Assembly (NCBI GenBank): GCA_003166335.1 | Contig: PMWA01000057.1 | Span: 11,280-56,822, forward strand | Direction of reading: 5' to 3' | Origin: Methanobacterium sp. | Lineage (GTDB): Archaea > Methanobacteriota > Methanobacteria > Methanobacteriales > Methanobacteriaceae | DNA length: 45,543 nt | In this document: positions 10,128-28,505 of the stretch, one piece after another | Position numbering within the stretch: position 1 is the stretch's first letter | Layout of the letters: every line of letters starts with the position of its first letter | Translations under genes and position numbers: made by a program | The notes under the pieces: generated by a model | Told to the model about the DNA's origin: nothing | Databases searched by the model: none | The model's input: only the letters and a program-made list of their open reading frames with translations

Positions 10128-10490
10128 ATGAAGCAAAACGTAGGCATATTATTATTGATAATAATAGTTGCAGTTGGAGCAGTAGGTGTTTGGGCTATTA
10201 GTAATATTACAAACCATAACCCCACTCTAAATTTAACTGCAACTAATAATAACACAACTAATGCCTCTACTAATTCAGCTACAAATCCAGGCAATAATGC
10301 AAATAGTGGAAGTGGAAGCAGTAGTAGTGGAAGCAGTAGTGCTGGAAGCGGAAGCAGTAGTGCTGGAAGCGGAAGCAGTAGTGCTGGAAGCGGGAACAGT
10401 GGAAGCAGCGGTGATAATGGAGGTTATGGTCTAACAGGGTCTACATATACTCCGAACACCAGTAATCCACATGGAACAGTTCCTGGTTAA
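10128..10490 (+). CDS. Small membrane-anchored or secreted Asn/Thr- and Ser/Gly-rich protein
   Basis: GGTGA RBS before ATG 10128; N-terminal hydrophobic helix, N-x-T/S sequons and GSSSAGS repeats. Confidence 0.7.
   Translation: MKQNVGILLLIIIVAVGAVGVWAISNITNHNPTLNLTATNNNTTNASTNSATNPGNNANSGSGSSSSGSSSAGSGSSSAGSGSSSAGSGNSGSSGDNGGYGLTGSTYTPNTSNPHGTVPG
10329..10391 (+). repeat. Coding tandem repeat, 3 exact copies of 21-bp GGAAGCAGTAGTGCTGGAAGC
   Basis: Read directly at 10329-10349, 10350-10370 and 10371-10391, with degenerate flanks. Confidence 0.95.
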
Positions 10491-16035: not shown

Positions 16036-16155
16036 CTTATAACTTTTAATTTATAAGTTAGATGTTATAAGTAATAAGTAGTATGTTATAAGTTAAATGT
16101 TAAAAGTTATGAATTATAAGTTATAAGTAGTATGTTATAAGTTATGAGTAATTAG
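16036..16155 (+). repeat. Phased heptad array, consensus TTATAAG: 15 direct units (16051-16155) preceded by 2 inverted units (16036-16049)
   Basis: ttataag|ttagatg|ttataag|taataag|tagtatg|ttataag|ttaaatg|ttaaaag|ttatgaa|ttataag|ttataag|tagtatg|ttataag|ttatgag|taattag. Confidence 0.92.
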
Positions 16156-16216
16156 GTTTAAATAAGAGCTTTAATAATCATCAGGCATTAAATTATAAAA
16201 AATTATAGAATAATAA

Positions 16217-16237
16217 CTAAAAGTTATAAGTTATAAG
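16217..16237 (+). repeat. Three further heptads (ctaaaag|ttataag|ttataag) abutting the ferredoxin RBS
   Basis: Read directly; the last unit runs into GGAG. Confidence 0.75.
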
Positions 16238-16252
16238 GAGTAAATTTTTTTA

Positions 16253-16456
16253 ATGAGAATTGAAGTTGATAAAGAAAAATGTACTGGCTGTGGAATATGC
16301 AGAGAAGCCTGCCCTAAAGGACCTAAAATATGGAAAATCAATGACAAAGCAGAAGCCACAGACTTAAGATACTGCCATTTATGTACTATATGTGCCTCAA
16401 AATGTCCCCAAGGTGCTATAAAAGTTATAAGAGATGATAAAGATGAATCGGAATAA
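16253..16456 (+). CDS. 2[4Fe-4S] ferredoxin
   Basis: [12 protein letters not shown] and [12 protein letters not shown]. Confidence 0.92.
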
Positions 16457-17021
16457 ACAGTTGCAAAGGAAAACGAATGAAACAGATATCAAAATCTTAT
16501 TAAACATTGATGGAAAAGGTCAATCCCAAATAGATACTGGAATTGAATTTTTTGATCATATGTTAGAATCATTCGCCAAACATGGATTTTTTGATTTAGA
16601 AATTGCAGCTCAAGGAGACACCAGTGTAGATGATCATCATACTGTAGAAGATGTGGGTATACTTTTAGGAGAAGCATTTAAAGAAGCTTTAGGGGATAAA
16701 AGAGGAATAAAAAGAATGGCACACTCCATAGTTCCTATGGATGATGCTTTAGCAACTGTAGCTATAGATATAGGTGGTAGGAGTTACACTGTATTGAATT
16801 TAATGTTTAAAAAAGCCAAGGTTGGAGATCTTAGCACAGAAAATATGGAACACTTCTTTGAATCATTTGCTTCCTCGGGAAAAATAAATATAAATGCTAA
16901 AGTGGAAGGTGAAAACGACCATCACAAAATAGAAGCCCTATTTAAAGCCTTTGCCACAGCCTTAAAAGATGCATCCCGAATAGAACATGATACAATACCT
17001 AGCACCAAGGGTATGATATGA
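16443..17021 (+). CDS. hisB: Imidazoleglycerol-phosphate dehydratase
   Basis: [22 protein letters not shown] and [12 protein letters not shown] motifs; start (16443 or 16434) overlaps the ferredoxin stop. Confidence 0.96.
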
Positions 17022-17169
17022 AGATTCTAAAAATTTATTAAATGAATTTTTTTTAAGATTGAAAAGTGTATTCAACATTTAATGAACAAAAACTTAAGTC
17101 TCAAAAATAGATTAAGATTTATTCTCCATTATTCATATATAGTCTAAATAAAAAAAGAAATGCACACTG

Positions 17170-18369
17170 CTAAAAAGAAATTTCAAAAATTTTTCCAAAA
17201 TCTAATCCATTAATTTTTTTATGTTTATAATCCTTATGTATATTCTTTTTACCTTCAACTAATTCTTCAGATTTTATTCCATGTTTTATTGATAATGAAG
17301 CTTCAATGAAAGCTGAAAACTTATCGCAAGCCTTTATTATATTTCCATCTAGTGGGAAAAATTCTTCTTTATTATACTTTTCTTCAAGTATTGGAACTAT
17401 TTTAACTTCATTATCTACTATAATTTTATTTTCAAATTCATTTTCGGTGAAATACCGCATTTCATCATGCCATGGCTTTGGAAGTAATGGTAACAATTTT
17501 TCTTTCATTTTCTGGTATTCATATTCCTTTATTACCTCATCTAAGTTAGGGACTTTTTTTACAGGAGAAATAATATCCTTAGTCAAAACTTCAGGAAGAT
17601 CATGGAATAAACCACAATAATAATTATTATAGAATCGTTTTTCACAAATTTTACCTTTCATTTCCATGGTGCATAAGTAAGAGGCAATGGCTACGATTAA
17701 CATATGCCCTAAAACAGAAGTTTCAGGTATTCTTGGTGAATGAGCCCATCGTTTCTGGAATCTAAGTTGTCCACATAGATCTACAAATCCAAAAGATTTC
17801 TTACCCAGTGAAATCTTCTGTACACCTATGAGATCATAATGGTCTTCAATCTGGTTTTCAATATTCTCCTTAGTCTCCTCAATACCATAAATAAATGGTG
17901 CAGTATGGTAAATTATTTTGAATTCCCAATTAGTAGCCAAATAATGAGCAGCTCTTAGAATTCTTCTTTCAATATTAGTTGGTGAATTTGAAAAATATTT
18001 CTTAAAATTACCTTTAAACTGTGGATTTAAACCACTGATATCATTTTTTAACTCGTTAAAAACATGTTGATCTAGTTTATTTCTTACATCCTTATCTTCT
18101 CTCATTTTATGAAAAACGGGAGCTTTAATGTCAGTTAAAATAACTCTTTGTAGAAATTCGAAGATTCCACCTTCGATAAGAGTTTTCCAATCTATGATTT
18201 CGCCACGATCCTCTTCTAGTTTAGCAAGCACGTATGCGATAACCATTTTGTGAGCCTGTTTATCAAGTTCGGTTAATTCAACGGGGCGTATGTGATCGTT
18301 CCATCTTTGCATACTGGCTGCTTTTGTAAATCTTTCTAACAATCTGGCTATGCTAGTTTCTTTCCCCAT
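17170..18369 (-). CDS. Tandem HD-domain (YfbR-like) phosphohydrolase
   Basis: MQRWND...ELDKQAHK, LRFQKRW...SVLGHML...GLFHDLPE and ACDKFSAFIEA; probable start ATG 18369 after GGGGT. Confidence 0.8.
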   Translation of the reverse strand: MGKETSIARLLERFTKAASMQRWNDHIRPVELTELDKQAHKMVIAYVLAKLEEDRGEIIDWKTLIEGGIFEFLQRVILTDIKAPVFHKMREDKDVRNKLDQHVFNELKNDISGLNPQFKGNFKKYFSNSPTNIERRILRAAHYLATNWEFKIIYHTAPFIYGIEETKENIENQIEDHYDLIGVQKISLGKKSFGFVDLCGQLRFQKRWAHSPRIPETSVLGHMLIVAIASYLCTMEMKGKICEKRFYNNYYCGLFHDLPEVLTKDIISPVKKVPNLDEVIKEYEYQKMKEKLLPLLPKPWHDEMRYFTENEFENKIIVDNEVKIVPILEEKYNKEEFFPLDGNIIKACDKFSAFIEASLSIKHGIKSEELVEGKKNIHKDYKHKKINGLDFGKIFEISF

Positions 18370-18568
18370 AATATTACCCCAAATATTGAAATGGATAATT
18401 GAAGGTTGGAATATGTAGATTATAAGTTTAAAAAGTTTCAAATCATTTATTCGACAATAAGAATTAATAGAATCTGAAGCTAATTTATCAATCAAAAATC
18501 GGTTATTAAATTGTAATAAATAAAAAAAATAAAAAATTAGCAGTCCAATGGGACCGCATTAACTATAT

Positions 18569-19396
18569 TTATTCAGGTTTTTTCATTAATTCAGTTTTCC
18601 ACAGTGTTTGACCTTTTGCACCGTGTGGTTTTCTCATTACTGAATCGTTGGCTTTTTCTATTTCACGAGCTTCTACTGCGAGTTTTGCAGCGGCGGAGAT
18701 CATTTCATGGGCAGAGGCCACGATTGGTATGTATTTTTCCATTTCTTTGGTCATGAAACAGCCTTTTAAATCGATGTCAGCTACTTTCTGCGCGATTTCA
18801 TATGCTGCCATTGCTTTGGCTTTAGCGTATGGATTTTTGAATGCAGCAGCAGTTACAGCTACATCGGTACTTATTACCACTTTAGGTAATTCAATAGATC
18901 CGGATTCTGCAGCAGCTATTACACCATCTAAAGTTTCTTGAACGACTCGGTAAGCGCCGGTTGCTGCCAGTACTTTTATAACATCGGAGTTGAAAGACGC
19001 CATTTCAGTGGGATCTAAGAATTCTCTTCGGGCTCCGATCATAGGGTCTCCTTGAACAATAATGTATCCTAAGCCTTGTTCATCCATTTCATCTTTTTTA
19101 CCCATTCCAGGAGCGTCTCCGAGTATTATGGCTGGAACATCCATTTTTGAGAGGAGTTCCCTTGCTTTGGCCGGTCCTGGTGCACCTGGGTTTGGACTGA
19201 TGAATACAACAAAATCAGGGTCGAAGTCCATTATTTTTGGAACTGCATCTTCGATCTGTTCTGGGCTCATTTTTGCACCGGAACTTACGCCTCTAACGTC
19301 TATGTTAGGTCTGTCTGCCCTCTCGTCAAGCACTAAGTCAACGACAGGAGAGGTACCTAAATTTCCGCATTTAATAACTCCTATTTTTACTACCAT
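18569..19396 (-). CDS. mtd: F420-dependent methylenetetrahydromethanopterin dehydrogenase
   Basis: KCGNLGTS, LDERADR, SGAKM, SPNPGAPGP and DPMIGARREFLDPTEMA. Confidence 0.97.
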   Translation of the reverse strand: MVVKIGVIKCGNLGTSPVVDLVLDERADRPNIDVRGVSSGAKMSPEQIEDAVPKIMDFDPDFVVFISPNPGAPGPAKARELLSKMDVPAIILGDAPGMGKKDEMDEQGLGYIIVQGDPMIGARREFLDPTEMASFNSDVIKVLAATGAYRVVQETLDGVIAAAESGSIELPKVVISTDVAVTAAAFKNPYAKAKAMAAYEIAQKVADIDLKGCFMTKEMEKYIPIVASAHEMISAAAKLAVEAREIEKANDSVMRKPHGAKGQTLWKTELMKKPE

Positions 19397-19718
19397 TGTA
19401 TCACCAGAATTGCTATTTTTATAATCTAATAAGTATTTTTTGATTTAATTTTTAAAACAAGTTTTATATAGAAGATTTTAATTTTAGGAAAACCCTGTAG
19501 TTATGTAGCTGGATATAAGTATCTTATCTTAACTTTTGATTTAATTTTAAAACAAAGTTATGTGGATCGTTTTCATAAATATGAATTTGTTATGAAATGA
19601 ATACTAATTTTTAATACAGACATCAATTTCAAGTGTAAAAATAGGATTTTAGGGCTATGAAACCTTATTTCTTAGTAAATTTGGATATGGACAAAAAATT
19701 TGTATTTTAAGATTATTT

Positions 19719-20879
19719 TCATATTGCAGATTTAGAACTCATATGGAAAATGTTGTTAGCAAATATAAGAAGAGATATTACAGCTAAACCGTAAAAAATC
19801 CAAACTATACCATCAGTAGGTCCCGTCTCAACCCAAATCGCAGTGTGGGCCAATATAATAGCATATAATGCAGTATATGCTCCGTTAGCGATTTTTTGCG
19901 CTCTATGCATCAGTCGAAGTATCAGTCCAAGTAAAAACATTTGCACAGCAAGACCTAATGCCCCAAAATCCAGGATGGCCGGTCCAAAAATGGTGGAAGT
20001 AATACTAACAGTGGGTGTGCTTACATTATAATGATAACCTAGAACTACCTGTCCGACCGTAACTCGTGGATGTCCTCCTGTAAGAGCCTGATGGAAAAGT
20101 TCTCCACCAGTAAAGCCGGGCATGTGAACAATTTTATCAAGAACCATCATTGTGAATCCAGCCCGGTAAAAAAGTAATTGTAATGGATTTAAAACCCAAG
20201 TCTGCCATTCAATAGATTTTACTGCAATGTAACCTAGTATTACACCAATTACAGCTGCTAAAATAATAGAAAGGATTATGTATCTGGTTTGAATTCGTTG
20301 GATATAATAGGTGGTTATGATTACAGTGAATATTATAGCAAGAGCGGTTGTTCTATAGCCATCAATTGCAAACAGTGCTAAACCAATTACGAAAAGGATA
20401 TAATACCTTTTACTAGGATATTTGGCTAATAATAAGTTTAAAGCAGGGAGAAATAAAATATATGAAACCATCCACAAATCTGTGGTTGCTCTAAATTTGA
20501 GATAACCGTTTAGTAGTGGAATACCACCTAGCAAATAGAGGTTTATGGCTTGCAGTATTAAAGCTATTATTACAATTGAAAGTAAAATCCGTTCATCTAG
20601 TAGAATTTTTAATTTAGAATACCAGAATGATGGTTTCTTCTGGGTTATATTCTCTCGTTTTAAAGTTGATTTAATACCTGGGGAGTAATAGGTGATTATT
20701 TTTGGTACAGTAGCTCCAATGATAAATATTATGGTACCAAAAATCATATATATGAATGTGGTAGTGGACGCCCATTGTAGATTACGGATGTGATAATTGT
20801 ACCCCAGCATAGCCAATGCCACATAGATTGCTATAGCTACTACTATGATGTAAGGGGAGAATATATCTACTTTATCCAA
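19719..20879 (-). CDS. Polytopic membrane protein, oligosaccharide repeat-unit polymerase (Wzy-like) family
   Basis: About 10 hydrophobic segments; GGIPL, GYRT and SITSTIFGPAILDFG motifs; TTG start is uncertain. Confidence 0.65.
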   Translation of the reverse strand: MDKVDIFSPYIIVVAIAIYVALAMLGYNYHIRNLQWASTTTFIYMIFGTIIFIIGATVPKIITYYSPGIKSTLKRENITQKKPSFWYSKLKILLDERILLSIVIIALILQAINLYLLGGIPLLNGYLKFRATTDLWMVSYILFLPALNLLLAKYPSKRYYILFVIGLALFAIDGYRTTALAIIFTVIITTYYIQRIQTRYIILSIILAAVIGVILGYIAVKSIEWQTWVLNPLQLLFYRAGFTMMVLDKIVHMPGFTGGELFHQALTGGHPRVTVGQVVLGYHYNVSTPTVSITSTIFGPAILDFGALGLAVQMFLLGLILRLMHRAQKIANGAYTALYAIILAHTAIWVETGPTDGIVWIFYGLAVISLLIFANNIFHMSSKSAI

Positions 20880-20957
20880 ATTTATTAATTTAATATTTGA
20901 ATCTCCATTTTTTTTGTATAAAAGAGGTTGAATGATGTATTTATTGATAAAGATTTT

Positions 20958-22307
20958 TTAGATTTCAGCCGCATTACGAGTAAAATTAGAAGCAAATAAT
21001 GGATACGCTGCCACATGAGTGTGTATATAACTTGCCACGGTATTTTTTTCTATTAATCCATCATAATCATTTTGGATTCCTCTGCCTCTCAACATCTTGA
21101 AGGCAAATTGTGGTTTGGCTCCGTTTAAATTAACCTTAGAGTAGTGAAATTCATGTCCTCTAAATATATCTCCTTTATTTACCAGTATATTATCTTTAAT
21201 TGCTTTGGATATTATATAACTTAATGCTTGTGGTTTATTAGTCATAATAGAAGGATAATTAAACACATTACACATCTTATAATTATTTATGGATCTTGAT
21301 AGATACATTAAGCCTCCACATTCAGCATAAATGGGCTTACCTTCAAGATGAAACTTTCGAACTGAATTTAGCATGCCAATATTTGCCCCAAGTTCTTGAG
21401 CAAATATTTCAGGATACCCTCCACCTATATATAAACCATCGACATCTGGAACTTCTTCATCATGAATAGGGCTGAAATAAACCAGTTCTGCATGATTAGC
21501 CTCTAGTGCATCAAGGTTATCTTTATAGTAAAATGTGAACACCTCATCCATAGCGACTCCCAGTTTAACTCGTTTATGATTTTCCACTTTCCAAAGATCT
21601 TTTCTACCTTCCGGAAGTTTTTTTGAATCCTTCATTATCGATATAAGGATATCTAAGTCTATATGTTCCTTTACCATTTCTTTCCATTTATATATGGAAT
21701 TTTTGATAGTTTCACGCTCAACTGCAGGAACTAAACCTAAATGTCGGTCTTCCACTCTTAATGAATCATCTCTAGGCATTCCACCGATTACATCAGTTTT
21801 TGTTAGAGTTTCTATAGCTTCTTTTGTTTTAAGGTAGTGTTTCTTGTTTTTAACTTGATTCAATATCACTCCTCTAATATTTATAGTCGGATCTAATTTT
21901 TTAAATCCCAATACAACTGCCGCAGCACTTTTAACTAGACTTCTAGCGTTCATAATTAATATAACAGGAGCATTAAGAGCTTTAGCAACGGAAGCTGTGC
22001 TCCCCACTTCTCCTATTGGACTTATACCCTCGTAAAGTCCTCTTACACCTTCAATAATTCCTAAATGAGATTTTGAAATATTTAAACTTCTTTCGAAAGC
22101 CTCTCTAATCTGTGAATCATTCATGAAAAAAGAGTCTAAATTTCTGGAATTGATTCCTGTGGCTAATGTATGATAAGTGGGGTCTATGTAGTCAGGGCCA
22201 ACCTTAAAAGGTTGTACGCGATATTCTTCGGATAGAGCCCCCATTATGCCTGTAGAAATTGTTGTCTTTCCCACTGCGCTTCCAGTTCCTGCAAGGACTA
22301 TTCTCAT
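20958..22307 (-). CDS. cfbB: Cobyrinate / Ni-sirohydrochlorin a,c-diamide synthase (CbiA/CfbB)
   Basis: [47 protein letters not shown] and GHEFHYS. Confidence 0.85.
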
Positions 22308-22429
22308 ATTAATTAAATATTAGATGATTTTATTTAAATTGTACCCCAAAATAAAAGAAATTTACTTATTAAGAATATAATATATAAATATTGAATGATC
22401 ATTAATATTAAAAAATAAATTATGATAAA

Positions 22430-23554
22430 ATGAATAAAACGAAGAAGCTGGAAATTCTAGGTGAAAGTGCTAGATATGACCGGTGCAATCACATAAATTC
22501 AAGTATAGAAAGTTTTTTGAGCAGCAAAATCCCTGGTGTATACAATGCTAGCACCACCAATGGTTGTAAAGTACCATTATTAAAGGTTTTGATGACCAAT
22601 AAATGTTCTAATGATTGTCGATATTGTATTAATCATAATAAACATCAGTTTAATAGGGTGGAATTTTCACCAGAAGAGCTTACTTCACTATTTTTAGATT
22701 ATTATCAAAATAGATATGTTGAAGGATTATTTCTAAGTTCAGGAATTCCTAATGATGCAGAAAATTCCATGGAAAACATGGTGGAAGTTCTCCAAAAACT
22801 CCGTTTCGAATATGGATATAAGGGATATATACACCTTAAAATTCTTCCTGGTAGTTCTTATGATCTAATAAAAAGAGCAATGAGTTTAGCTGATAGAGTA
22901 AGTGTTAATATAGAGGCTGCTACTCCAGAAGGTCTTAGTGATCTTTGTAGTACCAAAAATTATGATACAGATATTATAAGACGTATTAATTGGATTAAAA
23001 GACTGATGAAGAGGGATGAAAATCTGACACCCTCTGGTCAAACCACTCAATTTATTGTAGGTGCTACAGATGAAACTGACCAACAGATTTTAGAAAGAGT
23101 TGATTGGTTATATAAGAAAATGGATATTAAAAGAAGTTATTTTAGTACTTTTGAGCCCATGAAACATACGCCTTTAGAATTTCGTGAAGATCCATCTCCT
23201 AAAAGAAGTCCTAGGCTGTATCAAGCTGATTTTTTACTTAACTCCTATGGGTTTAGTATGGATGAATTGGTTTTTGATGAAGAGGACAATTTAAAATTAG
23301 ATGCTGATCCTAAATATTACTCAGCATTATTCCATAAAGAGCTTTTTCCTGTAGAAATTAATGATGCTCATTATCAGGAACTTCTAAGGGTACCTGGAAT
23401 AGGTAAAATATCTGCTGCAAGAATTATCCAGAATAGGAAGTTAGGTAATTGTTTTGAAAAATTAGAAGACCTTAAAAATATTGGTGTTGTAACTAGTAGG
23501 GCTGAACCTTTTATTAAATTGAATAGAAAGTATCAAAGCACTCTTGAATTTTAG
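22430..23554 (+). CDS. Putative DNA modification/repair radical SAM protein with C-terminal helix-hairpin-helix
   Basis: [17 protein letters not shown] (CX3CX2C), [32 protein letters not shown] and [12 protein letters not shown] (HhH). Confidence 0.85.
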
Positions 23555-23596
23555 AATAATCCTCTTTTTCTATAATTTTTAATAAATATTTATTAC

Positions 23597-23692
23597 TTAT
23601 AAGTTATAAGTGATTTAGTTATAAGTTTTAAGTTAAAACTTATATCTTATCAGTGAATAAGTTACAAGTTAAAACTTAGAAATTATAAGTTA
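23597..23692 (+). repeat. Heptad array (about 13 units, consensus TTATAAG/C) directly after the stop codon of the ParA partner gene
   Basis: ttataag|ttataag|tgatttag|ttataag|ttttaag|ttaaaac|ttatatc|ttatcag|tgaataag|ttacaag|ttaaaac|ttagaaa|ttataag. Confidence 0.88.
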
Positions 23693-24091
23693 TTACAATC
23701 CTTTTTCCTCAAAGATCATCCAAATATCGGGGTATCTATCTTTTACCGCTTCCTCAATGAGTGTTGAAGCTTCATTGCTAATACTAAATTCAGGCTTAGT
23801 CTTCTTTAGAAATCTCAAAACTGCTGCAGACTTCGCAGACCATAATGAAATGCGGGGGTTTTTATGAACATCTAGAAGGACTTCATTTATAACTCCCTCA
23901 TCAAAATTTATAGTTTGAACTGAATTAACTTTATTTTCAGCTTCATCTTCTATTTTTTGAGTCTTTTCAAGTTTAGTTTTATCGGTTTTTTCCTTAACTT
24001 CTTCTTCATCCAGATAATTACTTCGTATAAGGGCATCTAATCCTTTTCCTAAAGCATTATCCGATTTTTTTCTAACATTTCTGGAGGTCAT
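23693..24091 (-). CDS. ParA partner: Spo0J-like N-terminal peptide plus predicted ribbon-helix-helix domain (candidate centromere-binding protein)
   Basis: LGKGLDALI at residues 14-22, charged linker, then RISLWS / AKSAAVLRFLKK / SISNEASTLIEEAVKDRY; start overlaps the parA stop by 4 bp. Confidence 0.7.
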   Translation of the reverse strand: MTSRNVRKKSDNALGKGLDALIRSNYLDEEEVKEKTDKTKLEKTQKIEDEAENKVNSVQTINFDEGVINEVLLDVHKNPRISLWSAKSAAVLRFLKKTKPEFSISNEASTLIEEAVKDRYPDIWMIFEEKGL

Positions 24092-24873
24092 TTATCAACC
24101 TCCAAGCATTCTAGTTTCAAAAGTTCTTCAGCAAGCTTCTGATAAGCCACTGTACCACTGCATTCATCATCATAAACTATGCAAGGTTTACCATGGCTAG
24201 GGGCTTCAGCAAGCCTTACGTTACGTGGAATAGTGGTTTTAAATATGTTCTCAGTCTCTCCAAAGTATTCCTTGACATTATTGTATACATCTCTTCCCAA
24301 ACGGGTTCTCGAATCATATAAAGTTAGAAGAATTCCTTTAATTGGTGAAGGACTGTTTAAACGAGTTTCAACTAAATCCATAGCTCTGATAAGATCTGCC
24401 ATTCCCTCCAATGCATAAAATTCTGCTTGTATGGGTATTATGACACTGTCAGAGGCCACTATTGAATTTAAAGTTAATAAACCTAAAGAGGGAGGCACAT
24501 CAATGAAAACATAATCATATTGATCATCAATTCCCTCCATAGACTCTTTTAATATGGAATGAGGACCTATTGTTTTGCTTAATTCAATTTCTGCACCACT
24601 TAAGGAAATATTACTAGGAACTAATTCTAAATCAGGGATATCTGTTTTAACGATAGATTCTTGTAGGGTATTTTGACCCGTTAAAACGGAGTATATTGAA
24701 ATGTTTTGCTCATTTTTTTCGATTCCTAGTCCAGTGGTTGCGTTTCCCTGAGGATCCATATCTATTAACAAAATTTTTCTGCCTAGAAGGGCTAAAGCAG
24801 CTGATAAATTAACTGCAGTTGTGGTTTTACCACACCCCCCCTTTTGATTTAGTATTGCAATTATTTCAACCAT
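24088..24873 (-). CDS. parA: ParA/Soj family chromosome-partitioning ATPase
   Basis: Deviant Walker A KGGCGKTT, DMDPQGNAT, DVPPSLG, PIQAEFYALEG, DSRTRL and IPRNVRLAEAPSHGKP; no N-terminal HTH. Confidence 0.95.
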   Translation of the reverse strand: MVEIIAILNQKGGCGKTTTAVNLSAALALLGRKILLIDMDPQGNATTGLGIEKNEQNISIYSVLTGQNTLQESIVKTDIPDLELVPSNISLSGAEIELSKTIGPHSILKESMEGIDDQYDYVFIDVPPSLGLLTLNSIVASDSVIIPIQAEFYALEGMADLIRAMDLVETRLNSPSPIKGILLTLYDSRTRLGRDVYNNVKEYFGETENIFKTTIPRNVRLAEAPSHGKPCIVYDDECSGTVAYQKLAEELLKLECLEVDK

Positions 24874-24897
24874 AAAAATACAATCCTCCCTATTTTA

Positions 24898-24947
24898 TGA
24901 TAAGTTCTAAATTATAAGTTATAAGTTATAATATTTATACTTTTATG
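24898..24947 (-). promoter_or_regulatory. Candidate parA promoter (BRE/TATA CATAAAAG-TATAAATA) with five heptads between the TATA and the RBS
   Basis: tgataag|ttctaaa|ttataag|ttataag|ttataat at 24898-24932; TATA-like element at 24932-24939 on the minus strand; GGGAGG RBS at 24885-24890. Confidence 0.65.
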
Positions 24948-25362
24948 ATTATTAGCTATTCGTTAATAAAAAGCATGAGGATAAATAACCGCGTCTTAGA
25001 GAGTTAAGTAAACGCCAAAATACATTTTAGGTAAGTAATTAGATATATTCTTATTTGTCAAATTTCTAATATACCTTCATATAATTTAATGAATAGAAAG
25101 ATTATTTAAATTGAATTAAAAAGAGTATTTCCCAGTAAATTAATTATAGCATTAAGTTAAATGCACCATAGCCAATATTTATTATATTTTAATTATTCGA
25201 TGCATAGGAGACTATAAATTTGATTGAATTGAGATATTATTGAAAATACACTACGACTCTATGGCCATTTTTTATCTAAACTATTGAATCATAAATAAAA
25301 CTTGCATAATTATTAAATTTCGTCAATTTGTGTAAGGGTTATTATTGTTTGGGGGAGTTTAA

Positions 25363-26775
25363 ATGGATATTACCGAAGAAATTATATTTAAAAAGTTTGC
25401 AAATGTATTTAATTTGGAATATAACAAAAAAAGAGAGGAATGGATAAATAAATGTACTTTTGAAGATAAAGAAGGAAAGAAAGAGGTAATTGAATCATTA
25501 ATACCTATGAAGCATAATAAATTGAAAAAATTAATTCAATCATTAAAAAAATCTGAATTCGAAGATCTATACATTTATAACTCCAATTATTATGAAAAAT
25601 TGGTTGATATTCCCTCTAAAGAAGAAAATGACATGGATGTGCTTGCAGATTTCGTGGGAGATTTTGAAGATAAAGATATTCTAATAAAAGATTCTAAGAA
25701 AAGTTTGACTTTTGAAATTTCTAGTCCAAGCTTAGATTTCATAATAGCATCATATGTATTTTTTATAGACAATAAGAATAGCATAAAGTCTTTAGACGAA
25801 TGTCCTGCACTATTCCAGTCCAAAGCATCAAAATTAGGGCTATTTAAAATACACACGAATTTTGAAACCCGAGAAAATATAATTAGTAGCCTCAATAAAA
25901 TAATGAATTTAGAATCTGAAAGGTATAGGGCCATAATAGATGATAGAAATAAAAAAAATTATAAAAAAATGAAATTTGAATTTGAAAATGTTTTGGTTAA
26001 TGGCCTATTTAGGAATGTTAAGACCGTGAAGATTTTATCAAAAATTGAGTTAAACCTTGATACTTTCGAAAAATTATATGATTCTTTTATATTTTCTTTA
26101 GGGTACAATATAAATATGCCAGTTTTGGAATTTAGGCACTTAAAAGAAGATATTGATTATAATCCAAGGTTAAAATTAGATGAAATTGAAATCCCAAAAA
26201 GAAGTTACATAAAAGAGTTAATATATTATTATCAACAAGCACTTTCAGCTGATAATTCTTTATTAGAATATCTATCCTTTTACCAAATTCTTGAATATTT
26301 TTATAGTATTGTAGCCCGTGAAGATTTAATGCGCAATGTAAAAGATAAACTTTCTCATCCTAATTTTTCACATACGAATGATGAGAGCATTTTACAGCTT
26401 ATAGATATTATAAGTAAAGGTAAATTTGAAGAACCGCGAGCTTTAATATTAGTTTTGAAAAGATATTTAAAATTAGATGAGCTTAAAAATGACTTGATAA
26501 ATTATTGTAAAAATGAAAATTATTTTGATTATTATATTAAAAATAAAATTAATTTTGCAGATGCCGAACCCATTAAAGAGAATAACAACAAAATAATCAT
26601 GGATACATTGTCTAATAGAATATACAATGTTAGAAATGCTTTAATTCATAGTAAAGAAGGTGAAAAAAGGAGATATGTTCCTTTTTCAGAAAATGAAAAT
26701 GAATTAAGGAAAGAGCTGCCGTTAATTAGGTTAGTTGCAGAACAAATAATAATTAATAGTTCTAAAAACATATAA
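25363..26775 (+). CDS. Hypothetical protein with C-terminal HEPN-like domain (ApeA/MauJ-like), candidate defence RNase
   Basis: YYQQAL...YLSFYQILEYFY helix and IYNVRNALIHSK (RxxxxH); very AT-rich codons; GGGGAG RBS. Confidence 0.65.
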   Translation: MDITEEIIFKKFANVFNLEYNKKREEWINKCTFEDKEGKKEVIESLIPMKHNKLKKLIQSLKKSEFEDLYIYNSNYYEKLVDIPSKEENDMDVLADFVGDFEDKDILIKDSKKSLTFEISSPSLDFIIASYVFFIDNKNSIKSLDECPALFQSKASKLGLFKIHTNFETRENIISSLNKIMNLESERYRAIIDDRNKKNYKKMKFEFENVLVNGLFRNVKTVKILSKIELNLDTFEKLYDSFIFSLGYNINMPVLEFRHLKEDIDYNPRLKLDEIEIPKRSYIKELIYYYQQALSADNSLLEYLSFYQILEYFYSIVAREDLMRNVKDKLSHPNFSHTNDESILQLIDIISKGKFEEPRALILVLKRYLKLDELKNDLINYCKNENYFDYYIKNKINFADAEPIKENNNKIIMDTLSNRIYNVRNALIHSKEGEKRRYVPFSENENELRKELPLIRLVAEQIIINSSKNI

Positions 26776-26909
26776 CTAATCAAACTACTTCATGAAGGTA
26801 GATTCAAAAGAGACAACTATACACTAACAAAATATAAAAATGAAGCCTCTTGAATAGTGGAATGATACAAACCGAGTATATTCGTTTGAAACTTCTATTG
26901 CGACTTATT

Positions 26910-27090
26910 TTATTTCAGAACATATTCAAAATTAATTTTTGAAGACTTTCTATTTTCATTCCATTTAATTAACTCATTTAACCATAAAAATTTCCTTAAT
27001 ATTTCATTTTTTTCTTCATATCTATTGATTCCAGATTTATTTTCATTTAATTGAGCCTTAAAATTTTTTATTTTCTTTTTAACGTTATCA
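26910..27090 (-). pseudogene. Probable 3' remnant of an unknown gene
   Basis: Protein-like tail ...EILRKFLWLNELIKWNENRKSSKINFEYVLK; its listed start lies inside the integrase reading frame on the opposite strand. Confidence 0.35.
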
Positions 27091-28357
27091 GATATAACTT
27101 TCAAATCATGGATTAAAGACTTAAATCCGAACACCAAAATAAGTTACTTAAATGGTTTGGCTGAATTCTGTTTAGTTAATGATATAAAACCCGATGAAAT
27201 GATAAAAACCATATATAATGAAGAAGAGCAAAGATTGCCTTCCTGGGAAAAATCTATAAATAAATGGTTTGAAGCATATGACGAGCATTGTAAAGAACAA
27301 CAACACACCAAAAAGACTAGAGATAATAGAAGGACAATAGTTAATGCATTTATAGGTTTTCATGAATTATCAACTTATTCTGAAAAAGGTAAAAGAAGAA
27401 AAACAAATGGATTTAAAGAACCCAACATCAGAAAGGCATTAACTAAAAAAGAAATAAGAAAAATGTTAAACTCATGTAGAACTTGGAAAATGAAGTCTCT
27501 AATATTAATACAAACTTCATCAGGGCTATCTATATCAGATATATTAAAATTAAAGGTAAAAGACTTTCAAAATGGTATTACAATAGTATCTGATGTAAAA
27601 TCTAGAAAAAAAAGGAGAATATGCAAGTTTCACTTAATCAGAGAGAAAACAAAAAAAAGAATTTATAACTTTTATCAACGAAGAAGCAGCGGAAGCGATT
27701 GAGAATTATTTGAAACTTGAAAGAATAGATGTAAAACCAGATGAAGCACTTTTTACTAATAAAAAAGCTTCAGGAGAACCTATACTTAGAATATCATTGC
27801 TACAAGCTTATAGGAAACTAAATAATCATCTAGGCTGGACAAACTCAGAAAAAGGGCGTTTTAGAGCTGCAACGTCACATATGATGAGGAAATTCTTTAA
27901 CACTCAACTCGTTTATGCAGGTATGCCAGAAGAAATTCGTGAACATTTCATGGGTCATGTATTAGAAAATAAAGTTAGAGATGCTTATTTCTTACAAAAC
28001 GAGGAAGAACTTCAAAAGGTATACCTTGAAAACATGGATAAAATTACAATACGTCCATTAAAGCCACCAATAACTGTATCCGAGTACAAAGAAATGAAGA
28101 ATGACCAAGAATACCTACAAAAAGAAAATGAAATACTTAAAACCGAGTTGAAAGATGTAAAAGACCTCATCAGTAACTATGATCTTACCACCGAAGACCC
28201 TAATGAAGAACTATTAAACGATAATAAGCAAATGAGTGAGGCATTATCGGGTGTAATGTTTGATAATCAAAGGCAACAATCTGAAATAAATGAATTGAAT
28301 GAATTAGTACAAAACATGGGACAAAAGTTAAAAGAATTAAAAAAGGCTTCTTCATGA
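27091..28357 (+). pseudogene. Tyrosine recombinase/integrase, frameshifted at an A8 run and lacking its start
   Basis: Removing one A at 27651-27658 joins the two ORFs as REKTKKEFITFINEEAAEAIENYLKLER; SSGLSISD, SHMMRKFF, FMGH and DAYF motifs; C-terminal coiled coil. Confidence 0.85.
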
Positions 28358-28505
28358 TTGTCTAAAAGCCCTAATAATTATTTTTTTAGCGTGCTTATAA
28401 GTTATAATATAAATATTTTATCTTTAAAAAAATGAATATTAAGCATTTCTGAATAATTATTGCAGAAAAAAAAAGTTAAAAAAAACGAAATTATTTAAAA
28501 AGAGA

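Follow-up and report, generated by a model that had tools for sequence, protein, structure and literature searches.

Chromosome partition in Methanobacteria is of interest, since these archaea reportedly have no Smc and the genome considered here has no ParB. PMC7055376 reports Smc in 0 of 72 Methanobacteriales. Likewise, no Smc scored over the cut-off in our source genome, a Methanobacterium sp. assembly (99.4% complete). No match to PF02195 (ParB_N) that would indicate a ParB/Srx CTPase domain was found in that genome or in the adaptor protein described below; a control search with PF02195 was positive in 10 of 14 genomes.

The window analysed here is a 45,543-nucleotide stretch of this genome. 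It contains a ParA-type gene and a small partner gene bracketed by 7-bp repeats. An earlier note, made from the sequence alone, proposed an undescribed chromosome-partition system at this place. We ask what the system is, where its sites lie and how it would work.

An overlapping parA-segB operon

Both genes are on the minus strand. The first one, segA/parA (24088-24873), encodes a Soj-type deviant Walker-A ATPase of 261 aa without N-terminal HTH. The second one, segB (23693-24091), overlaps it by 4 bp and encodes a 132-aa protein composed of a ParB-type peptide, a linker predicted to be disordered and a SegB-homologous, putative RHH domain, with a putative role as centromere-binding adaptor. 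The two-gene operon of the earlier note is borne out, and so is its ParA without HTH, whose translation contains DSRTRL and IPRNVRL and has no N-terminal extension. In relatives also, segB lies directly downstream of a ParA-type ATPase gene, and thrS and a radical-SAM gene flank the operon in most of them. The operon is covered by RNA-library contigs, which carry no information on transcription, strand or level.

For comparisons, 51 main loci were retained out of 58; seven (L014, L017, L035, L037, L041, L048 and L058) were dropped, since parA or segB was missing, cut, broken or unparsed in them. In the window, segB faces a convergently oriented radical-SAM/HhH gene (22430-23554; TIGR03916, putative DNA modification/repair). 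Of the 51 loci, 48 have a convergent gene after segB, and where inspected it is usually this radical-SAM/HhH gene. segB appears split in genome G050 (L058), parA was not found in L014 (G291) and is split in L007 (G208), and segB of a type 3 paralogous operon (see below) is interrupted in L094 (G082). These broken or missing components may be assembly errors.

The ATPase matches AAA_31 (E 1.6e-65) and is 52% identical to Bacillus Soj. The bacterial ParA of PDB 8RAY aligns over residues 3-254 (E 3.4e-69), Sulfolobus SegA (7DUT) over residues 4-163 (E 1.6e-17) and delta with E 3e-12. No second Soj-like ParA was found in the source genome. As the match is full length with bacterial ParA and partial with SegA, the ATPase is not of the SegA type, and the locus was therefore classed as a SegAB variant. 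The signature lysines K11 and K16, the catalytic aspartate D40 and the DNA-binding residues R189 and R217 are found in 50/50 ParAs; R238 is replaced by T in 12 of them.

The partner is a SegB homologue

Neither Pfam nor NCBIfam has a family for the partner, and the ESM Atlas returned solely unnamed Methanobacteriota clusters. A PDB search identified S. solfataricus SegB (7DUV, E 3.6e-10; 7DV2, E 1.7e-8) and gave no sequence match to omega or ParG. Because the partner is a homologue of SegB and segAB of M. thermautotrophicus and of Methanobacteriales already appears in PMC5120986 and PMC12139799, the system cannot be called undescribed, as the earlier note had it. The monomer model is weak, with a pLDDT of 67, no strand formed and low pLDDT for residues 26-60. 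With this model, SegB was the top Foldseek hit at an E-value of 0.26, and the superimposition on SegB gave a Z-score of 2.5 and an rmsd of 3.4 over 51 residues.

In the alignment to 7DUV, W56, S57 and the dimer-dimer residue P72 are kept. K52 becomes R80, and three DNA contacts differ (K75 to S103, R78 to N106 and K81 to S109). The roles of the SegB residues, as well as the K52 to R80 change in euryarchaea, are those given in PMC8682754. A changed base contact would fit a changed site. The segment KNPRISLWSAK agrees at 8 of 11 positions with the published SegB signature, K/R-D/N-P-K/R-I-G/T-V/L-WS-Y/P-P/E (PMC12139799), with S for G/T and AK for Y/P-P/E; Methanobacteriales are still counted as SegB members in PMC12139799. 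In six loci (L052-L057; genera g5, g11, g13 and g17), the linker is expanded to give proteins of 173-256 aa. In these genera, the promoter arrays are longer and more degenerate.

A ParB-type tail on SegB and a conserved pocket in ParA

Codons 14-22 of segB (24026-24052, minus strand) encode LGKGLDALI. A search with SegB residues 1-40 against longer proteins retained 0 of 17 candidates; since a 40-residue query built around a 9-residue motif is weak, ParB N-termini were compared directly instead. The motif is near-identical to the N-termini of Bacteroides and Listeria ParBs, and the same motif starts the four ParBs compared (Bacteroides, Listeria, Bacillus and Sphingopyxis). In M. xanthus ParB, residues L11, R13, L15, L18 and I19 bind and activate ParA (PMC12462528). 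L14, K16, L18, L21 and I22 of SegB have the same spacing, and LG.GL..LI is present in 51/51 main-locus SegBs. The hybrid adaptor suggested by the earlier note is supported.

The residues of the peptide pocket were mapped through the ParA alignment to 8RAY. Y61, E97, L130, L167 and L172 are found in 50/50 ParAs, and I96, L132 and L135 are hydrophobic throughout the 50. At the sub-site of R13, two acidic residues are lost (E82 to S62 and D110 to S90), and the equivalents are mostly non-acidic in relatives. According to PMC12462528, S. solfataricus SegA differs in the region of this pocket.

Heptad arrays in the window

The repeat unit is TTATAA followed by G or C, so that TAA-S-TTA cores abut. 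The promoter array (24898-24934; TRF 24900-24931, 4.6 copies) has about 5 heptads between a putative TATA box and the ribosome-binding site, and is a candidate segS and operator. The 3' array (23590-23692; TRF 23597-23693, 13.6 copies), also a candidate segS, lies where the radical-SAM gene and segB converge, between their stop codons. The distal satellite array (16037-16149; TRF 16.1 copies) is located between a ModE-like gene and a ferredoxin-hisB pair. The distant array of the earlier note is thus confirmed, and a further doublet is found just upstream of the ferredoxin gene (16217-16237; TRF 16221-16237, exact 13-mer at 16224).

The note had described these arrays as TTATAAG. TRF does find them, but the unit is rather TTATAA plus G/C and the copies are degenerate. 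TTATAAG alone under-called the 3' array and was replaced by an S-spacer model for array scoring. When up to one mismatch is allowed, 12 cores are counted in the 3' array, spread over three phase blocks, against 9 in the distal array, all in one phase, and 3 in the promoter array. TTATAAG has 42 matches in the window, one of them at 28394-28401, versus 21.3 +/- 4.9 in 100 shuffles, none of which reached 42. All 6 exact TTATAA-S-TTATAA 13-mers of the 2.49-Mb genome are at window positions 16114-28407, versus 1.7 expected genome-wide (order-4 Markov), whereas control 13-mers with an A/T spacer gave 6 versus 5.7 expected. Copies with one mismatch (49 versus 37 expected) are mostly scattered. The two strongest in-phase arrays of the genome, with 9 and 5 cores, are both in the window; two regions elsewhere reach 4.

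Two isolated words resembling the origin box (see below) are present at window 19627 and 20570 (C119:30906 and 31849); they are not beside heptads and are likely due to chance. Another tandem repeat of the window (10307-10406, period 21/42) is coding and Ser/Gly-rich, within a 123-aa ORF that precedes a gene for a pseudomurein-binding protein.

An island is inserted into the promoter array

Upstream of the operon, a 3.5-kb island (24935-28394) has a GC content of 0.268 versus 0.326 for the window. This region, which is outside the partition system, contains a 470-aa MauJ/HEPN-like gene, with a weak PADLOC match to DzbB (E 3e-7), and a tyrosine integrase split in two ORFs, with Phage_integrase matches below cut-off on 27157-27702 and 27710-28357. 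It is bounded by a 16-bp direct repeat, with the left copy at 24919-24934 and the right copy, which marks the end of the island, at 28395-28410. In relatives, thrS is directly upstream of parA and the sequence continues like the 28395 copy. In public sequencing runs X1 and X3, loose ends at 24934 read an island-free junction. The island was inserted into the promoter array of segAB, where it has taken the place of the native upstream promoter sequence. The two units at 28395, which the earlier note counted among the arrays, are thus an integration scar, and an independent centromere at this position is rejected.

Sites flank the operon and cluster near the likely origin in most relatives

A pair of cores is present within 250 bp upstream of the operon in 47 of the 51 main loci, and within 250 bp downstream in 35, all 35 between convergent genes. 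In AT-rich background windows, a pair was found in 1 of 1370. This comparison answers the co-occurrence check proposed in the earlier note; genome G001 has the operon without an array. In G027, no exact 13-mer is found near the operon, and pairs with one mismatch are located upstream. Co-occurrence of operon and arrays across the class is supported, and so is a chromosomal module made of ParA, RHH adaptor and centromere.

The wider distribution was followed across 15 genera, in 30 near-complete genomes (29 of them single-contig, plus G002), which are related, so that counts are non-independent. Their 204 exact 13-mers form 129 clusters, of which 40 are at the operon, in 28 of the 30 genomes. 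Another 50, in 22 genomes, are satellites located 2.5-100 kb from segB, versus 7.7 expected if uniform. The remaining 39 are more than 100 kb away, 12 of them in G243. Scattered single 13-mers are at chance level in AT-rich genomes, where a reversed control gave up to 8 matches. Among the satellite sites checked, most lie between genes and beside a gene start. At the position of the distal array, pairs are found in 18/18 loci of the same genus and in 0/12 loci of other genera, which have satellites elsewhere. The near-origin position is kept, while the neighbouring gene is not.

The median distance from segB to the best cdc6 is about 41 kb in these genomes, and segB lies within 5% of the genome from it in 27 of 30, six wrap-around values resting on rounded genome sizes. 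The exceptions are G001 (about 202 kb), G003 (about 286 kb) and G086. In the source genome, cdc6 is on a different contig from segAB, so that origin proximity is seen only in relatives. Repeats adjacent to cdc6 are called here origin boxes. Converging arrays of these boxes lie upstream of the best cdc6 in G028, G025 and G036, a fourth genome being examined without upstream DNA. The best cdc6 also has origin-box arrays in G069, G049, G024 and G007. A single origin was reported for M. thermautotrophicus (PMC4010727).

G001 is a special case. Its operon has no heptad array, and six perfect 27-bp palindromes are found 31-94 kb away (G001:C1:1073572-1098067, in L067 and L068, where boxes converge over 25 kb; the sixth site is at L069:4449). 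An origin box is located 22-28 bp to one side of five of the six palindromes, with shared flanks. Conversely, five of the seven exact origin boxes of this genome are beside the heptad palindromes, and none is within 35 kb of cdc6. This is possibly a dispersed origin fused to centromere sites. The GC and gene-direction skews of G001 have their peaks near 560 and 1220 kb, away from the box-heptad cluster. Overall, the box-heptad composite is found in 9 of 329 genomes. In eight genomes of genus g5 (L118-L125), an origin box adjoins heptad pairs. In four of the loci it is part of a multi-box array, with no cdc6 in the locus; three others have one box only, within the region upstream of segAB, and L125 has a single box much like theirs. 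No heptad pairs were found in the cdc6-adjacent origin-box arrays of seven genomes.

Repeat, tail and pocket change together in paralogous operons

Some genomes have additional parA-segB operons of types 2 and 3 (L059-L066 and L077-L108), with their own repeats, which provide a natural control. In type 3, the SegB strand is PRISFW and the tail GGLG.DMG.ML. TAA-S-TTA occurs there at 8-bp spacing in 17/17 loci versus 0/51 main loci, the locus with the broken segB (L094) being left out; 9 of the 17 also have one 7-bp pair. In type 2, the strand is PRLAFW and the tail SRSPLQER. TAAA(A/T)A-S doublets are present in 9/9 loci, with neither TAA-S-TTA pattern. In the ParA pocket, Y61 becomes R in both types, E97 becomes Q or Y, and L167 becomes E or I. 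A change of repeat is thus accompanied by a change of tail and pocket. Eight of the loci had been seen before the patterns were chosen, and, since each type is one clade, the comparison amounts to two events, not 26.

In complete g10 genomes that carry all three systems, the distance to cdc6 is about 700 kb for type 2 and about 780-970 kb for type 3, and the two are on opposite arms. Near type 2 operons, a perfect 7-bp microsatellite of 11-15 copies matches the type 2 repeat unit (L059:5858-5962, L060:3543-3619 and L061:7437-7523).

Distribution and earlier literature

Of the 301 genomes of the class, 284 have SegB, as do 215 of the 223 good genomes and 30/30 genera. A profile search with SegB retrieved 291 representatives at 50% identity, many with the LG(K/R)G tail. 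Outside the class, matches come from an Archaeoglobaceae archaeon, a Methanotrichaceae MAG, a MAG titled Micrarchaeota and a Methanohalobium plasmid; several have no tail. In the phylum of G329, only 12 of 301 genomes match, and one of them (locus L210) combines the tail with the same upstream heptads. Other SegB homologues outside the class (L128-L130 and L221) have other heptad-like repeats upstream, with three copies in one MAG. L131 was a false match. A mainly mobile origin was rejected, since viral contigs gave 1 locus and plasmids 1 record. Our ParA tree has four bacterial rows and is without Sulfolobus and Thermococcus SegA; hence it gives no direction of transfer.

To our knowledge, SegAB has been studied in Sulfolobales only. 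PMC5120986 lists M. thermautotrophicus among segAB carriers. The preprint PMC12139799 includes 22 euryarchaeal SegBs and proposes a transfer into the ancestor of Methanobacteriales; there, a "scarcity" of SegAB in Euryarchaeota is used to argue for transfer from Sulfolobaceae. The near-universal presence in the class (215/223) conflicts with this argument. As reported in PMC12284271, the sole published euryarchaeal site search, in Thermococcus sibiricus, found nothing near segAB, and the supplement of that paper contains a reviewer remark that the motif does not seem to apply to Euryarchaea. In agreement with the earlier note, which was not aware of any account of the cis sites, no description of the sites or of a ParB-type tail on SegB was found in the searched, mainly open literature; Fig. 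S12 of PMC8682754, on site conservation, may bear on this point. The operon is published, while the centromere, the origin-proximal layout, the ParB-type tail and the paralog code appear to be unpublished.

A model for segregation and its alternatives

We propose that the locus is the Methanobacteria form of SegAB, with segS as centromere, a bacterial-type relay and probable autorepression. Taken together, these elements have a probability of roughly 0.7 in our estimate. SegB dimers would read the 7-bp TAA-S-TTA cores via the RHH strand and polymerise along abutting cores. Protein-DNA patches would then form at the promoter, behind the operon and at satellites within about 100 kb, which corresponds to the origin region in most genomes. 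Each SegB would display its LG(K/R)GL..LI tail on the disordered linker, and the tail would dock in the conserved pocket of nucleoid-bound ParA-ATP dimers to trigger hydrolysis. New origin regions would be driven apart as in bacterial ParABS, but through a type Ib-like RHH adaptor and without CTP clamp or Smc. The promoter array is probably also the repressor site of the operon, autorepression being plausible from its overlap with the promoter. Judged from sequence comparisons, SegB very likely binds the arrays, which are very probably the centromere of segAB. A role of segAB in segregation is likely, and the bacterial-type relay somewhat less so. Speaking against the proposal are the two acidic residues lost at the R13 sub-site and R238 replaced in 12 ParAs, the three altered DNA contacts of SegB, the 39 clusters far from segB, and the exceptions seen in G001, G003, G027, G050 and L014.

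The same sites could instead support a Sulfolobus-like mechanism without relay, where segregation would rely on bridging and compaction by SegB and on a SegA figure between sisters. Both SegB and its proline at the dimer-dimer contact are shared with Sulfolobus, the CTP clamp domain is absent, and a bipolar model is presented in PMC12139799. However, the ATPase is far nearer to Soj than to SegA, and pocket and peptide are conserved here while the pocket region differs in S. solfataricus SegA (PMC12462528), so that we regard this mechanism as unlikely. A simpler view, in which SegB would only repress segAB and a few neighbours, is suggested by the promoter array between the TATA-like box and the start and by satellites that are mostly intergenic, beside a gene start, among those checked. 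This view is improbable in light of the 35 arrays located between convergent 3' ends, of the six perfect 27-bp sites of G001, whose operon has no array, and of satellites that track the near-origin position and not gene identity.

Soj acts on DnaA. By analogy, ParA might act on Cdc6 or on the origin, the arrays tethering it nearby for control of replication initiation. The proximity of segB to the origin and the nine genomes with the composite are consistent with such a role, and the G001 boxes, of which five out of seven flank palindromes and none is within 35 kb of cdc6, add some weight to it. Yet the composite is absent from 320 of 329 genomes, the cdc6-adjacent box arrays of seven genomes have no heptad pairs, and origin use was unchanged by segAB deletion in Sulfolobus as reported in PMC12858884. 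We consider this role quite improbable. Finally, TTATAA resembles a TATA box, and in AT-rich genomes scattered single 13-mers are no commoner than by chance; the repeats might be AT-rich by-products, such as TATA-like sequences or terminators, or else be bound by some unrelated protein. The specificity of the G/C spacer and of the 7-bp phase, the background of 1/1370 and the change of repeat with the SegB paralog make this hardly credible.

A broader reading can be built on the proposed SegAB model. Origin segregation would be chimeric, with a bacterial ParA and a ParB peptide on an archaeal RHH heptad reader and neither Smc nor CTP clamp. SegB would follow a modular code, in which a central A-S-T core has flanks that vary, units are spaced by 7 or 8 bp, and peptide and pocket match. 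Some species would have up to three systems without cross-talk, placed at the origin and along both arms of the chromosome. In the G001 lineage, centromere sites would have been fused to Cdc6 origin boxes, thereby coupling initiation to segregation, and the tailed SegB, also found outside the class, may be older than the Sulfolobus form. As a combination this remains tentative, with the odds somewhat against all parts holding together.

Partition in methanogens becomes directly testable with a defined site, an origin-proximal map and a named activating peptide. The sites might also be used to stabilise methanogen vectors.

Comparison with known partition systems

The S. solfataricus site derived from ChIP is TCTAGA-S-TCTAGA, with core AGA-S-TCT (PMC12284271), and the Saci site consists of three 7-bp repeats, [AGNGTNN]3 (PMC12139799). 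The system described here shares with SegAB/segS of Sulfolobales (PMC8682754, PMC12284271, PMC12139799) an overlapping segA-segB operon and a homologous C-terminal SegB domain, here putatively RHH. In both cases, a 13-bp site made of two palindromic hexamers around one G/C is clustered at the operon, and the host lineage has no Smc. The hexamers are TTATAA here and TCTAGA there, and long intergenic arrays on both sides of the operon replace mostly intragenic sites. Methanobacteria, which unlike Sulfolobales are rod-shaped, have a single origin, a Soj-type ATPase and a ParB-type tail.

With bacterial ParABS (Soj/Spo0J; M. xanthus 8RAY; PMC12462528), the similarities are a ParA about 50% identical with its peptide pocket, the LG(K/R)GL..LI activating motif and near-origin sites. 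In contrast, there is here no ParB/Srx CTPase domain or HTH and no Smc, and an RHH domain is the predicted reader of heptads, instead of a 16-bp parS.

HpaAB of Haloferax volcanii also combines a euryarchaeal ParA with a predicted RHH adaptor, but HpaA, which groups with MipZ, acts in a polyploid cell and on a secondary chromosome (PMC13722703).

Type Ib plasmid systems (delta/omega of pSM19035, ParF/ParG of TP228) have, as is predicted here, a small RHH adaptor with an N-terminal activating tail and iterated short sites flanking the genes. The omega sites are heptads. Unlike these plasmid systems, the Methanobacteria one is chromosomal and class-wide (284/301), and lies between thrS and a radical-SAM gene in most relatives.
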